Shown piece by piece: positions 127 to 7,460 of a DNA stretch of 7,460 bases (positions are counted from its first letter, which is position 1; each line of letters opens with the position of its first letter). The stretch lies in IMG/VR virus record IMGVR_UViG_2609459846_000009. One strand, written 5' to 3'. This DNA comes from a virus (taxonomy: Duplodnaviria; Heunggongvirae; Uroviricota; Caudoviricetes). Both the position numbers and the translations under genes were made by a program. The notes below the pieces were generated by a model. It was not told where the DNA came from and searched no databases. It was given only the letters and a program-made list of their open reading frames with translations.

Positions 127-3528
<3,402 letters not shown>

Positions 3529-3547
3529 TCATGCTCCATAAACGATA

Positions 3548-3567
3548 AAACCGCCCGGAGGCGGTTT
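3548..3567 (-). promoter_or_regulatory. GC-rich hairpin followed by a U-run in the I-J intergenic region (terminator-like or RNA-stability element)
   Basis: Plus-strand AAACCGCC-CGGA-GGCGGTTT forms a perfect 8-bp stem with 4-nt loop. On the minus-strand transcript it is followed by UUUUAUCGUUUAU, then the J Shine-Dalgarno and ATG. Confidence 0.35.
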
Positions 3568-3585
3568 CACATAAAACATTTTGCA

Positions 3586-4233
3586 TCAGCGACCAATCAC
3601 CACAACCTGACCGCCATCCCCTTCGTCTGCCGTGCTGATCTCCTGAGAAACCACGCGTGACCCCACGCGCATTTCACCGTACAGAACCGGCAGAACATTG
3701 CCCTGGGCAACCATGTTATCCAGTGAGGAGAAATAGGTGTTCTGTTTGCCGTTATCTGTACTGGCTGCCGTGGGCGTCCTGGCTTTCGGTGCCAGCATCT
3801 GCGCCACACCACCCAGGATCATACTGGCCCCTGCTGCATACAGACCCGATACAGCCGCGGCCCCCAGCCAGCCAACAGGGTTCCACCATGCCACCGCAAT
3901 CAGCGCCGCACCCAGCACCGCCTGAAACACACCGCCACTTTTGGCACCCGCCAGACGCGGAACGACGTGGATCACGGCACCATTTGCCAGCGGTTCATTA
4001 AGACGGGCAGATAATTCATTTTCGCCTGCATCACGCCCGGAAATGCGCACCTGATACCAGCCCTCATTCAGTTTCTGGCGAAACGACGGAAGCTGTGTGG
4101 CCAGCGCCCGGATGGCTTCAGCCCCCGTTTTCACACGAAGGTCGATGCGGCGGCCAAATCGTTGTAAATCCCCGTAAAGGCAGATGCGTGCCATGCCCGG
4201 TGACGCCAGAGGGAGTGTGTGCGTCGCTGCCAT
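3586..4233 (-). CDS. I: Tail assembly protein I (N-terminal ubiquitin-like domain ending in Gly-Gly, then hydrophobic Gly/Ala-rich segment), 215 aa
   Basis: N-terminus MAATHTLPLASPGMARICLYGDLQRFGRRIDLRVKTGAEAIRALATQLP matches my recollection of lambda gpI. ATG at 4233..4231. Diglycine at residues 100-101 (codons 3936..3931). The 103-nt overlap with the upstream K ORF is the same as the K/I overlap in lambda. Confidence 0.9.
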   Translation of the reverse strand: MAATHTLPLASPGMARICLYGDLQRFGRRIDLRVKTGAEAIRALATQLPSFRQKLNEGWYQVRISGRDAGENELSARLNEPLANGAVIHVVPRLAGAKSGGVFQAVLGAALIAVAWWNPVGWLGAAAVSGLYAAGASMILGGVAQMLAPKARTPTAASTDNGKQNTYFSSLDNMVAQGNVLPVLYGEMRVGSRVVSQEISTADEGDGGQVVVIGR

Positions 4234-4874
4234 TTGTCGGTATACCTCTCTCGTTTGCTCAGTTGTTCAGGAATATGGTGCAGCAGCTCGCCGTCACCAC
4301 AGTAAATGGCGGCATGATTCGGCACCGATGAACCAAAACAGCACAGCAGCACATCGCCCGGCTGCGCCGCTGACAACGGCACCTGATACAGCCCTGTGGC
4401 CTCCAGATTATCCAGATAGAGATTCTGACCGTGACGCCACCAGTCATCCTCGCGATGAAAATCCGGCATCTCAATCCCCGCCAGATGGTAAGCATCCCGG
4501 AACAGTGTGTAACAGTCCGTCACACCGTGCTCAAAGCGCCGCCCGGTAAGATGTGGCACACAGCGGAACTTGTGAATCGCCCCCCGGCAGACCAGCCACC
4601 ACGGCAAATCACTCTGCACCTGCAGCCGCCGGTCGGCCTCACTCAGCCAGGGCAGACCACCGGGGTGGCTGTGGACCAGTGCCACAATCTCACCCTGCAT
4701 CTCTGCCTGCAGCCAGTCCTCCGGAGCCATCCGGAAATAATCCTCCGGCTCACCGGAAATATTCACGCAGGGAAAATATCTTTCCCCCTCCGGCGCTCTC
4801 ACCACGAAGCCGCACGACTCCGCTGGCGCACATCGCCGGGCGTGCGCCAGAATCGCTGATTCTGTCTCTGTCAT
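4131..4874 (-). CDS. K: Tail assembly protein K (JAB/MPN metalloprotease domain plus NlpC/P60 domain); 247 aa from first ATG, with an alternative lambda-style internal start at 4730 giving 199 aa
   Basis: JAMM motif HSHPGGLPWLSEAD (HxH-x7-S-x2-D; His codons at 4673..4665) with a candidate upstream catalytic Glu at codon 4820..4818 in PAESCG. NlpC/P60-like Cys (VTDCYTLF) and downstream His. ATG at 4874..4872 lies 4 nt after the L stop. The ORF-track first codon at 4916 is TTG, not ATG. Confidence 0.85.
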   Translation of the reverse strand: MTETESAILAHARRCAPAESCGFVVRAPEGERYFPCVNISGEPEDYFRMAPEDWLQAEMQGEIVALVHSHPGGLPWLSEADRRLQVQSDLPWWLVCRGAIHKFRCVPHLTGRRFEHGVTDCYTLFRDAYHLAGIEMPDFHREDDWWRHGQNLYLDNLEATGLYQVPLSAAQPGDVLLCCFGSSVPNHAAIYCGDGELLHHIPEQLSKRERYTDKWQRRTHSLWRHRAWHASAFTGIYNDLAAASTFV

Positions 4875-4878
4875 GGGA

Positions 4879-5577
4879 TTACTGCGAAAGTTTGTTAATG
4901 GAAAGGAAGCCGCCAAAGTTGCCGACGTTATTGCGAAACTTACAGCCGCTCAGGCATTTGCTGCATTTATCCTTCGTGATATCGGACGTTGGCTGGTCAT
5001 ATTCATCCGCGACAGCCGGACCGCTATAACCGCACTCGTCGCCGCGATAGGTCCAGGTGCAGGTGTTGGCCAGCATGATACGCCCCGGAAAAACAGAGCC
5101 ATCCGTTTCAGTCGGTGTGGACAGTACAAAAGAGACACTGACCGCGCTCAGTTCGCTGCACTGCTCGATGCGCCAGCGGCTGATCACCTCCTGCTCCGGA
5201 TCGGCTTCGCTGTTTCCGTTGACGAAGTTCACCGCATCCAGAAAACGGGCGTAAACCTTACGCCGGACCACCGTTCCGCCGACCAGACTCTGCAGGTCTT
5301 CCGCCATCCCGGTGACCATGCCGTGCAGGTTAGAAACCGTCAGTGTCGGACGGGCAGCACTGCCCTTGCCGTTCAGTTCAAATCCCGTCCCCTGAATGGG
5401 ATACGCCTGATACTGTCGCCCCTGCCAGGTGACCGGCTCACCTTTTTCGTTCTGCTCATTACAGAAAAAATAACGTTCTCCACCGACCACTGTCAGATCG
5501 ATTTCCCAGAGCACCACCTGGGCTGACTGAGTGAGGCGTGTCGTCTCATGATGTGTTTCCTGTGGAATATCCTGCAT
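4879..5577 (-). CDS. L: Tail tip protein L, 232 aa, with C-terminal cysteine cluster
   Basis: 232 aa, the same length as lambda gpL. N-terminus MQDIPQETHHETTRLTQSAQVVLWEIDLT matches lambda L as I recall it. C-terminal DECG...CSKCLSGC cysteine cluster is consistent with the iron-sulphur site reported for gpL. ATG at 5577..5575 with GGAG 7 nt upstream, overlapping the M stop. Confidence 0.93.
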   Translation of the reverse strand: MQDIPQETHHETTRLTQSAQVVLWEIDLTVVGGERYFFCNEQNEKGEPVTWQGRQYQAYPIQGTGFELNGKGSAARPTLTVSNLHGMVTGMAEDLQSLVGGTVVRRKVYARFLDAVNFVNGNSEADPEQEVISRWRIEQCSELSAVSVSFVLSTPTETDGSVFPGRIMLANTCTWTYRGDECGYSGPAVADEYDQPTSDITKDKCSKCLSGCKFRNNVGNFGGFLSINKLSQ

Positions 5578-5586
5578 CAGAGACTC

Positions 5587-5916
5587 CTATGCCACGACCT
5601 GTTCAAAATCTGCCGTTATGGTTACCCACAACGCCCCCACGCTTGCCGACCATTTACGACAAACCACCCTGATCGGCTTCCAGTCATAAGGTGGCGTCCA
5701 CTGAAATGCGCGGACGCCACCGTGCCGTTCCAGAAAGGCTTTTAAAGATGGGTGTTCACATTTACGAACACGTATCGTCACGCTGTAAGTCGACAACTGG
5801 TTATTCAGTCCCGCCGCACGACGCTGTTCATAACCATCGCCCAGCTTCACTGTCACCACTTTCGGCTCTGATACCACATTCATATCCGGGCGCACTTTCC
5901 AGTGAAACGTCTCCAT
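5587..5916 (-). CDS. M: Minor tail / tail tip protein M, 109 aa
   Basis: 109 aa, the same length as lambda gpM. Start codon overlaps the H stop in a TAATG arrangement (H stop 5918..5916, M ATG 5916..5914), as at the lambda H/M junction. Gene order H-M-L matches lambda. Confidence 0.92.
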   Translation of the reverse strand: METFHWKVRPDMNVVSEPKVVTVKLGDGYEQRRAAGLNNQLSTYSVTIRVRKCEHPSLKAFLERHGGVRAFQWTPPYDWKPIRVVCRKWSASVGALWVTITADFEQVVA

Positions 5917-7056
5917 TACCGATATGCTCCACTTAACCGACCACCATCACGGGCCTGCTGTTGCATAAAGTCCGCTGCCGCTTTTTTCCCGAGGTCATAA
6001 ACCACCTTCAGGGCAGCCGGACCTATCTGCCCGTTCGTGCCATCGTTATTGATCTCGATGTTGTACTGCGGGGCAAACATCGCCATACCTGAACCACCAA
6101 TATCCGCCACAACCCCCAGCTTACCGTCAGCACCACGACGCAGTGGCAGAATGGCTTCAGGTCCCGCTTCCCCCATCACACCCGCGCCTTTTGCAAAAGC
6201 AAAAAACGTCGGACGGTTAACCACCGTGCCACTGTAACGACTCAAATCAGCAGACTGATAAATCCCCCCATTGGCATTCAGGGAAAGGCTGCTGAGATCA
6301 AATCTCAGTACACTGCCAATCCCTTTTATCGATTTCATCATGGTTGCCTGCGCCAGGATTTTCGCCATATCTGACAGCACAGAAGAGGTGAAGGATTTGA
6401 AATTGAGTTTGCCGGTAGTGACAAAAGTTGCCAGGCCATTTCCCATGTTGCTGAAGGCTGACGAGAACACCTGTTCTGCTGTTCCTGCCGTATTATCTGC
6501 ATCCACGGTAAAATCCTGAAATGCACGCAGGACTCCGTTTTTCCAGTTACCCTGCACAACTTCAAGCTGTTGCCAGTAACGGCGATTCTCATTCAGTTGT
6601 CGGTTCAGGCTCTCCGTCAGCGCCTGCTCGGCCTTTCTGTAGTCATCCGTGTTATATGTTCCTTTCTGCTCACTATCCCGCCTCAACTGCTCCAGCTGTT
6701 GCTGGTATTTCTGGCGAAGACTCAGTTGTACCTGATATCGCTGCCGCTGCTGATCACCCATACCCACCGTGGCGATATCCAGGTCATGTTGCTGACGCTG
6801 AGCGCGCTCTTCTTCAGCCAGTTGACTGGTCAGCTGAATTGTTTTTTTCTTCAGCTCGTTGAGTGCCGTCTGTTTCTGAAGCTCCTGCTGTTTTACATCC
6901 AGCAGCGTCAGTGCCTGAATCAGTTCATCTTTACGGGCCAGCACACTCTTTTCATCTGCCGTCAGTTCTTTCCCGTCCAGGTCGCTGATGCGCTGCTGCA
7001 GAGCCAGAAGCTGTTTATGCGCTTCTGTCATCCTTTCCGTGGCAATGCCTGCTGAC
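5916..7056 (-). pseudogene. H: Tail tape-measure protein H, 3' fragment (about 380 C-terminal codons), truncated at its 5' side by an IS insertion
   Basis: C-terminus ...INNDGTNGQIGPAALKVVYDLGKKAAADFMQQQARDGGRLSGAYR resembles the lambda gpH C-terminus. Q/E/L-rich coiled-coil-like region is typical of tape-measure proteins. About 380 aa remain against about 853 aa for lambda H. The reading frame runs upstream into IS-derived sequence at about 7057. Confidence 0.8.
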
Positions 7057-7098
7057 TGAACCGCCCCGGGTTTCCTGGAGAGTGTTTTATCTGTGAAC
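7057..7098. repeat. Right terminal inverted repeat region of the IS3-family element
   Basis: Non-coding stretch between the IS terminus (7057, 5'-TGAACC...) and the transposase stop codon (7099..7101). The exact length of the inverted repeat cannot be fixed without the other IS end. Confidence 0.55.
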
Positions 7099-7460
7099 TC
7101 AGGCTGCCAGATCATCGTTTCCGATGGAAGCATAATAAGCTTTTTCTGCTTCTGCCGGTGGGATATGGCCCAGCCTTTCCAGCAATCGTCGATTGTTATA
7201 CCAGTCCACCCACGTGAGTGTGGCCAGCTCCACTTCTGTCCGGTTTTTCCAGCTCTTACGGTGTATTACCTCCGCTTTGTAAAGGCCATTGATGCTCTCC
7301 GCCATCGCGTTGTCATACGAGTCACCAGTACTTCCTGTTGATGCCAGTAATCCGGCTTCCTTAAGCCGCTGTGTGTAGGCCAGCGATACATACTGAGAAC
7401 CTTTATCACTGTGATGGACTGTGCCGGACGGTTGACGGGCCCATAACGCCTGCTCCAGAG
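7099..7460 (-). CDS. IS3-family transposase OrfB (DDE integrase core), C-terminal portion; 5' end lies outside the window
   Basis: Minus-strand frame is open from the window edge to the stop at 7099..7101. Hand translation upstream of the track's Met gives ...STGSTGDSYDNAMAESINGLYKAEVIHRKSWKNRTEVELATLTWVDWYNNRRLLERLGHIPPAEAEKAYY..., the conserved catalytic-Glu region (YDNA-AES...NG-LK-E) of IS3-family OrfB. Confidence 0.85.
   Translation of the reverse strand, partial: LEQALWARQPSGTVHHSDKGSQYVSLAYTQRLKEAGLLASTGSTGDSYDNAMAESINGLYKAEVIHRKSWKNRTEVELATLTWVDWYNNRRLLERLGHIPPAEAEKAYYASIGNDDLAA

Follow-up and report, generated by a model that had tools for sequence, protein, structure and literature searches.

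Lambda-type tail-tip proteins I and K of an E. coli prophage pair a ubiquitin-like domain with a JAB-type protease, and a conserved P-x-x-x-G-[A/S] tail marks the likeliest processing site

Genes I and K in a 7,460-nt stretch of viral DNA (hereafter, the window) are an ordinary tail-tip assembly pair of a lambda-like siphophage, found here in an E. coli prophage. The pairing of a ubiquitin-like domain in I with a JAB protease domain in K is real but not new: the prediction dates from 2006, and an experimental demonstration was reported in 2025. Very probably, I is a precursor from which the JAB domain of K removes the ubiquitin-like domain during tip assembly, the C-terminal fragment of I staying in the virion. 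What our own analysis brings to this account is the fold of the N-terminal domain of I, two intact catalytic sites in K, the adjacency of the two genes, and a conserved motif at the tail of the ubiquitin-like domain. This motif is P-x-x-x-G-[A/S] rather than Gly-Gly.

The window carries a lambda-type tail-tip module on the minus strand, in the order H'-M-L-K-I-J according to the list of open reading frames (ORFs) and Pfam; all coordinates given below are on this strand. The module comprises J (127-3525), gene I for tail tip assembly protein I (3586..4233, 215 aa plus a stop; assigned from the ORF list, Pfam Lambda_tail_I, and PHROG 32), gene K for tail tip assembly protein K (4131..4874, 247 aa plus a stop, with its ATG at 4874 and its stop at 4131-4133; ORF list and PHROG 30), L (4879-5577), M (5587-5916), and 405 codons from the C-terminal end of tape-measure gene H (5916-7133). 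H is truncated since it is interrupted by an IS3-family transposase fragment, as seen in the window ORFs and by Pfam. The I-K region with its flanks (3400-5000) is 98.6% identical to phage Ayreon, ~96% identical to mEp460, and 80-99% identical to ~250 lambdoid phage records. The entire window is 98% identical to a prophage of E. coli strain E203449, whose RefSeq annotation shows these genes too, with the tape-measure gene carrying the same IS insertion, and names the same 744-nt K gene "C40 family peptidase." With the tape-measure gene split by IS3, the I/K pair may be nonproductive for tails in this host.

By its sequence matches, I is an orthologue of lambda gpI. It scores 81.2 bits against Pfam Lambda_tail_I (PF06805; cut-off 23.8) over residues 14-97, and it matches PHROG 32 ("tail assembly protein") with an E of 6e-83 and the lambda gpI chains 8iyk/8iyl/8k35/8xcg with an E of 5e-106. 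All the traits of the TAPI family are present: a beta-grasp N-terminus, a conserved glycine at its end (G96), a Gly-rich hydrophobic linker, a TAPI-C/plug domain, and a gene lying between K and J. An exhaustive, profile-free search returned 3122 matches at E ≤ 0.001, and 56 full-length homologues sharing 32-80% identity with I were aligned.

The N-terminal domain of I (residues 14-97, 3943..4194) is, in the predicted structure, a ThiS/MoaD-like, ubiquitin-like beta-grasp domain. Structure prediction had been proposed in the initial annotation as the check on this point, and the outcome bears the idea out. AlphaFold2, run with the 56-sequence alignment, gave a pLDDT of 91-97 over residues 11-90, and the model is confident to about residue 93. 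The chain runs through two strands, two helices, two further strands, a short helix, and a final strand, with strands at residues 13-19, 29-34, 60-64, 67-69, and 86-92 and helices at 37-47 and 49-57. When the domain was compared with PDB structures using Foldseek, the best matches were MoaD 6jbz_B (E 2e-4, TM 0.71), SAMP1 2l52, and MoaD 1fm0_D (TM 0.74), further matches being CysO 3dwg_C, a MoaD-related protein, and Urm1 1wgk; below these came several dozen chains of ubiquitin, SUMO, and NEDD8. The Foldseek probability was 1.00 for MoaD, SAMP1, CysO, and Urm1 as top matches.

The domain is followed by a hydrophobic Gly/Ala-rich segment (residues 100-147, 3793..3936), as had been noted for the stretch after the Gly-Gly: Kyte-Doolittle averages are 1.2-1.5 across residues 96-149, and AlphaFold2 predicts two helices, at 100-117 and 125-147. 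The remainder of I is the structural, or plug, domain (residues 148-215, 3589..3792), near-identical to lambda gpI residues 134-223 and recognized through the match to gpI in 9e7m, where residues 130-214 of I match the resolved part of that chain with an E of 4e-44. I is also homologous to the plug proteins in PDB entries 25vf_9 (E 4e-21) and 9l9p_A (E 6e-16), which presumably include PA0640 of the F-type pyocin, an assignment that we are guessing. The lambda counterparts of the two helices in the linker are known as H1/H2 and are predicted to be membrane-spanning (PMC11101478).

I and K are direct orthologues of lambda gpI and gpK (TAPI/TAPK), and the resemblance extends to the gene order H-M-L-K-I-J, to the three-part organization of I, and to the combination of JAB and NlpC/P60 domains in K, as in TAPK. 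I and gpI have identical sequences at residues 1-49 and again in the final ~55 residues. The two systems differ in that I has 215 rather than 223 aa here, being 8 residues shorter through deletions in the hydrophobic linker, in that residues 50-93, the exposed portion of its ubiquitin-like domain, carry a number of substitutions, and in that the module lies in a prophage with a tape-measure gene split by IS3.

K possesses the two enzymatic domains that had been attributed to it, each with an intact active site. The JAB/MPN+ metalloprotease domain occupies residues 4-98 (4581..4865; Pfam Prok-JAB, E 4e-14, 52.9 bits against a cut-off of 25) and contains a JAMM motif of the form E...HxHx7Sx2D (HSHPGGLPWLSEAD), in which E19 (4818-4820) lies upstream of H68-S-H70-x7-S78-x2-D81 (4632-4673). 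The NlpC/P60 (C40) papain-like peptidase domain occupies residues 111-224 (4203..4544; Pfam NLPC_P60, E 6e-13, 49.2 bits against a cut-off of 23), with a Cys-His-His triad made of C121 (4512-4514), H187 (4314-4316), and H199 (4278-4280). Among diverse K homologues sharing 31-52% identity, E19, H68, H70, and D81 are invariant, S78 is at least 90% conserved, and C121, H187, and H199 are invariant. Since the residues of both sites are invariant or nearly so, both active sites look functional.

The ubiquitin-like I is therefore paired with an adjacent JAB-type gene with an intact JAMM motif, as the initial annotation had it, and this arrangement recurs in relatives. We compared ~120 related viral loci falling in three clades, judging adjacency in those with enough flank, and in nearly all of them the gene directly upstream of the ubiquitin-like I is a JAB+NlpC/P60 gene with intact JAMM. 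The PHROG families also include natural fusions, in which a JAB domain is joined to I with no NlpC/P60 domain (PHROG 35166), K is joined to I (PHROG 28576), or I is joined to J; these agree with the description by Iyer and colleagues. A model of a fused K+I, predicted with a 37-row alignment, had a pTM of 0.37 and a mean pLDDT of 60, and residues 94-98 of I were below a pLDDT of 50.

The initial annotation had referred to a comparative-genomics proposal that I is ubiquitin-like and processed by the JAB domain of K, and the literature does contain it. Iyer, Burroughs and Aravind described tail assembly protein I as ubiquitin-like with a conserved C-terminal glycine and K as a JAB+NlpC/P60 protein, and predicted that the JAB domain releases the ubiquitin-like domain of I (PMC1779556); as early as 2003, K of lambda had appeared in a list of JAMM proteins (PMC300881). 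According to a 2025 meeting report, the Davidson laboratory has shown gpK to cut the ubiquitin-like domain off lambda gpI; the report also states that gpI is cleaved only once it is engaged with other tip proteins (PMC12908700). This summary, which gives neither data nor a cleavage site, is the sole statement of the work that we located, our search having returned no full paper or preprint. In lambda cryo-EM structures, the tip lumen is plugged by the C-terminal part of gpI, in the form of a trimer that also holds the gpH C-terminus, and gpK is not found in virions (PMC10721106, PMC12617516, PMC11101478). K-dependent cleavage and the presence of the C-terminal part of I in the tail are thus taken here from the literature.

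Applied to the proteins of the window, this would give the following sequence of events. I would be made as a three-part precursor, with a beta-grasp domain (residues 14-97), two hydrophobic helices (~100-147), and a plug (~148-215). K would be a nonstructural enzyme, a JAMM/MPN+ zinc protease joined to an NlpC/P60 cysteine peptidase. With I in place in the J-L complex, the JAMM site of K would cut off the ubiquitin-like leader; the C-terminal fragment would be kept in the virion, and the ubiquitin-like domain and K would be discarded. The retained plug would form a trimer filling the lumen of the tail tip and gripping the C-terminus of the tape-measure protein. As for the leader, we infer that it may solubilize the hydrophobic helices or serve as an assembly checkpoint until I docks on J and L.

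An objection to cleavage is that an N-terminal domain unresolved by cryo-EM could be flexible rather than removed. Full-length I would then be incorporated without processing, its N-terminal domain being too mobile to be seen. Virion structures resolve gpI only for residues 101/134/135-223, the cryo-EM papers say merely "unresolved N-terminal domain" (PMC10721106, PMC12617516, PMC11101478), and a preprint on the F-pyocin allows for either case, "flexible or cleaved." We nevertheless regard the absence of processing as very improbable. The meeting report states that cleavage occurs (PMC12908700). In virion mass spectrometry, gpK was undetected and gpI gave a single peptide, with a coverage of 9.87% corresponding to 22 residues; judging from this length, it would be the C-terminal tryptic peptide, although the ubiquitin-like domain has several ordinary tryptic peptides. 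Moreover, each of the clades that we examined has kept an invariant protease site next to a Gly-[Ala/Ser] tail that is likewise invariant.

If I is cleaved by K, the NlpC/P60 domain might be responsible instead of the JAB domain, or the two might act in turn. The invariance of the Cys121-His187-His199 triad would suit such a role, as would the fact that most deubiquitinases of eukaryotes have the papain fold. In some phages, the K that accompanies I consists of the NlpC/P60 domain only, and the possibility was raised in 2006 (PMC1779556). Against this, the meeting report credits gpK while stressing its "deubiquitinating domain" (PMC12908700), the natural JAB-I fusions of PHROG 35166 contain no NlpC/P60 domain, and the association of JAB with ubiquitin-like proteins recurs in unrelated bacterial operons (PMC1779556). 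Processing of I by the NlpC/P60 domain is on balance improbable, and we retain the JAB domain as the enzyme.

Where the JAB domain would cut is a separate matter, and it is here, in the claims of a "conserved Gly-Gly" and of "cleavage after Gly101," that the initial annotation is weakest. The diglycine itself is where it was said to be: in the 215-aa ORF at 3586-4233, read directly, G100 is encoded at 3934-3936 and G101 at 3931-3933 (together 3931..3936), the sequence up to this point being ...VVPRLAGAKSGG and the wider stretch ...VIHVVPRLAGAKSGGVFQAVLG... A Gly-Gly is by itself unremarkable in I because the protein is 12% Gly, a content at which one would expect 3.1 GG dipeptides, and it has 3. 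Nor is it conserved as a pair. Among the 56 homologues, the G100 position is Gly in 16 and elsewhere N, F, A, R, or absent, whereas G101 is Gly in 48. The strongest motif lies four residues upstream, in P92-R-L-A-G96-A97 (3943..3960), the conserved tail of the ubiquitin-like domain, where P92 is found in 56/56 homologues, G96 in 55/56, and Ala or Ser at position 97 in 53/56. The conserved motif of the family, and its probable processing motif, is P-x-x-x-G-[A/S], not Gly-Gly.

Two further lines of evidence, from the alignment with MoaD and from the model, point to the same place. When a profile of the domain is aligned with MoaD 3rpf_C, G96-A97 coincides with the Gly-Gly that ends this protein (residues 73-74 of 74), and it likewise matches the PPVAGG of the Thermus MoaD-related protein 1v8c_A, in each case at a weak E of about 0.5; this register is consistent with the fold match despite the weak sequence scores. 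In the AlphaFold2 model, the last strand (86-92) is followed after 4-5 residues by G96-A97 and after 9 residues by G101, where the helix 100-117 begins. Gly75-Gly76 of ubiquitin is 4-5 residues beyond the last strand. Finally, lambda gpI in the closed tail has been described as resolved from residue 101 onward (PMC11101478), which, if exact, places the cut upstream of G101. On the strength of the P92/G96/A-S97 conservation, the MoaD register, the distance from the strand, and the resolved part of gpI, G96-A97 is a likelier site than G101, and the scissile bond of I probably lies at or beside G96-A97, the positional equivalent of the Gly-Gly of ubiquitin and MoaD. This assignment has two weak points, namely that the MoaD alignments fixing the register are weak (E about 0.5) and that G101 itself is fairly conserved (48/56).

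The same mechanism could operate with the JAB domain cutting after Gly100-Gly101, so that mature I would begin at V102. GG is the classical P2-P1 pair of JAMM proteases and deubiquitinases, and G101, besides being Gly in most homologues, is invariant in 16 paired K+I sequences. But G100 is Gly in merely 16 of 56 homologues, G101 is found at the onset of a helix that remains in the virion, the chain is visible in lambda from residue 101 (PMC11101478), and the Gly-Gly of MoaD and ubiquitin aligns to G96-A97 rather than to G100-G101. We therefore consider a cut after G101 less likely than one at G96-A97.

The resemblance of I to MoaD, ThiS, CysO, SAMP, and Urm1 includes the fold (TM 0.67-0.74, normalized to the target) and the Pro-x-x-x-Gly-(small residue) C-terminal tail. 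MoaD-type proteins are also paired with JAMM proteases that cut at the tail, as in Mec+/CysO, QbsD/QbsE, and HvJAMM1/SAMP1 (PMC1779556, PMC4443979). I differs from these proteins in that the window contains no gene for an E1-like adenylating enzyme, a sulfurtransferase, or a conjugation target, the tail of I ends in Gly-Ala/Ser rather than Gly-Gly, and the domain leads a structural-protein precursor instead of being a free carrier. When I is set beside conjugatable modifiers (ubiquitin, SAMP, TtuB, and Bil-type Ubl), the terminal Gly-Gly is replaced by G96-A97, with Gly-[Ala/Ser] in 53/56 homologues, and the GG of I is 4 residues past the canonical position, the pair being conserved in at most 16/56. 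An E1- or E2-like partner is likewise missing from the window: on the strand that carries the genes, the long ORFs amount to J, I, K, L, M, the truncated H, and the IS3 transposase fragment, with no E1-/E2-like gene among them, and a Pfam scan that covered all of these but J found no ThiF/E1 or UBC domain. Because of the Gly-Ala/Ser at the Gly-Gly position and because no E1-/E2-like protein is encoded in the window, I/K is not a conjugation system.

A closer parallel in logic is provided by eukaryotic ubiquitin-ribosomal protein fusions and polyubiquitin, in which a ubiquitin-fold domain is translated in frame with its cargo and removed by a dedicated protease. The same logic would apply to I/K, where the domain would probably aid cargo solubility or ordered assembly. 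The differences are that the domain freed from I has no known later use, that the K protease is a JAMM fused to NlpC/P60, and that cleavage of I is reported as gated by tail-tip assembly (PMC12908700). Among tail-tip systems, the F-type pyocin (plug PA0640, gpK homologue PA0639) is similar in that its particles show only plug residues 127-200, with the K homologue absent, and in that the tail in its plug protein reads VP-x-x-x-G-S-K in the profile alignment; it differs in being a bacteriocin and not a phage. In T5, by contrast, the plug forms part of the hub protein pb3 itself, as an internal domain with no ubiquitin-like leader (PMC10721106).

Conjugation enters the picture in another way if counter-defense is the main function, or an additional one, of the JAB domain of K, which would strip off the ubiquitin-like proteins that Bil-type systems put on the central tail fiber J. 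K works at a tip complex that contains J, and such a role was speculated upon in a Bil preprint (10.1101/2023.09.04.556158). We give this reading little credence, since K is needed for tail assembly in hosts without Bil-type systems (PMC12617516) and the conservation of the JAB domain is already explained by its co-inheritance with the ubiquitin-like domain next door. A broader version, which we consider doubtful, is that K might have two substrates, the JAB domain cutting I at G96-A97 and the NlpC/P60 domain making a second cut in the tip, or that the JAB domain might counter Bil-type conjugation to J in addition to processing I. A candidate for the second cut would be the conversion of gpH to gpH*, whose protease is stated to be unknown (PMC12617516). 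The one observation pointing to either extension is the invariance of both catalytic sites.

The genes for K and I share 103 nt (4131..4233), encoding the C-terminal tail of K (residues 214-247) and residues 1-34 of I. As previously noted, the overlap is in different frames, K ending at the stop at 4131 and I starting at the ATG at 4233, one base out of frame; codon position 1 of I is codon position 3 of K, and the frame of I is the -1 frame of K. The lambda annotation has the same 103-nt K/I overlap. A Shine-Dalgarno-like GAGAGG (4245..4250) lies 11 nt upstream of this ATG. The overlap would be shorter if I started at a second ATG (4194), corresponding to M14. At the M14 position begin 43 of the 56 homologues, and many database entries of close relatives are a 200-202 aa form, two that we inspected starting at M14.

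We therefore compared 74 unique close relatives for variation at each codon position. In the region coding for K only, 54/113 K wobble sites are variable, but the figure is 0/13 between the ATGs at 4233 and 4194 (Fisher p 6e-4), and 3/21 from the ATG at 4194 to the K stop; over the entire overlap, the figures are 3/34 vs. 54/113 elsewhere (p 2e-5). Conversely, the second positions of K codons, which are the wobble positions of I, are variable at 11/33 sites in the overlap vs. 9/114 elsewhere (p 6e-4). Immediately upstream of 4233, the K wobble sites 4239 and 4242 are variable again. With K wobble sites nearly frozen and I wobble sites variable within the overlap, selection follows the frame of I from the ATG at 4233, and the 103-nt overlap is therefore real. 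The second ATG was rejected as the start of I in the lambda clade, since K wobble sites stop varying exactly at 4233 and since a Shine-Dalgarno-like motif is found there only, inspection of the sequence upstream of 4194 having revealed nothing comparable. I thus starts with a 13-residue extension (MAATHTLPLASPG, 4195..4233), which is restricted to the lambda-like clade and predicted to be disordered (pLDDT < 50 for residues 1-7). This peptide, MAATHTLPLASPG, is invariant in the 74 unique close relatives, and the K tail varies.

The C-terminal tail of K (~residues 214-247) is, on this pattern of variation, under relaxed or weak constraint. K residues 201-247 have a pLDDT < 50, and the tail is predicted to be disordered and is plausibly a read-through extension of K. 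In relatives, the position of the K stop ranges from 44 nt ahead of the point where the I domain starts to 64 nt beyond it, and because its position shifts among other clades, the long overlap is clade-specific. The suggestion that the overlap reflects tightly coupled expression finds no support here: besides being clade-specific in length, a 103-nt overlap does not have the geometry of termination-reinitiation, and I has its own GAGAGG. Two features had suggested a programmed -1 frameshift from K to I, namely that I is in the -1 frame of K and that the databases contain fused K-I ORFs. This candidate was rejected, since no slippery heptamer (X XXY YYZ) occurs anywhere in the K frame and since the fusions have indels where the overlap begins, so that they resemble products of mutation or of faulty sequencing.

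The window holds a near-identical copy of the studied lambda system and adds nothing categorically new to it. The gains are small: the P-x-x-x-G-[A/S] motif, the reality of the 13-residue extension of I and of the 103-nt overlap in the lambda clade, and the relaxed tail of K. The I/K pair of lambda is among the earliest predicted prokaryotic pairs of a ubiquitin-fold domain and a JAMM deubiquitinase-type protease, and it bears on the origin of ubiquitin signaling and on the ordered assembly of siphophage tail tips.

The 103 nt shared by K and I encode the last residues of K (residues 214-247; 4131-4233, minus strand), and these vary freely among close relatives, with His/Arg/Tyr/Leu, Tyr/Cys, Ala/Val, and Arg/Gln/Glu alternating at the sites that change. 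Each of these sites is synonymous in the overlapping I frame, and the K tail is predicted to be disordered. This segment appears to be a read-through extension under weak constraint, and not a functional region of the protein.

Public databases contain single ORFs in which K, whole or in part, is joined to full-length I, and a family of JAB-I fusions also exists; fusion entries include the homologous proteins P0001, P0007, P0014, and P0369 and the phage protein families PHROG 28576 and 35166. The fused K-I ORFs originate from small indels where the overlap begins. We considered programmed frameshifting as the source of the K-I fusions found in close relatives but rejected it, because the K frame contains no slippery heptamer. 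For the same reason, mutation or sequencing error appears to account for these fusions in close relatives.

Variation at the K/I locus takes other forms as well. In one clade of related loci (L029, L030, L036, L037, and L039), K and I are separated by ~570-580 additional nt, presumably corresponding to an extra gene. In another locus, L028, the spacer of the JAMM motif in K is 8 residues long instead of the usual 7 (HSHPKMMVARMSEAD), and the conserved tail of the I protein displays Gly-Asn instead of Gly-Ala/Ser. These two changes may represent a co-varying protease/site pair or, alternatively, a decaying copy.

Downstream, between the I stop codon and the J start codon, there is a strong stem-loop followed by a U-rich run (3531-3579, minus strand). 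The hairpin, which reads AAACCGCC-UCCG-GGCGGUUUU and is set in a longer stem, has a free energy of -24.8 kcal/mol and a z-score of -4.1 relative to shuffled sequences. It is absent from the list returned by a consensus terminator scan, and a "terminator" feature is annotated in the lambda-like phage Ayreon somewhere under its match to 3400-5000. This terminator-like hairpin sits within the late tail operon, at the I/J junction.

When the window is compared with the 98%-identical prophage of E. coli strain E203449, the only part that does not align is 786-1028, corresponding to the C-terminal receptor-binding end of J, which is 1132 residues long in the window and 1160 in the E203449 prophage. 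This divergence is consistent with recombinational exchange of the host-range region.

At the other end of the window, nothing is left of the tape-measure gene H but its C-terminal 405 codons (5916-7133, minus strand). This remnant is adjoined by a fragment of an IS3-family transposase on the same strand, with rve domains at 7099-7305, that reaches the window end (7460). In the RefSeq annotation of a 98%-identical E. coli prophage, both halves of H are pseudogenes, one on either side of the IS element. Since H is truncated and split by an IS3-family element, the prophage in the window has probably lost the ability to make tails.
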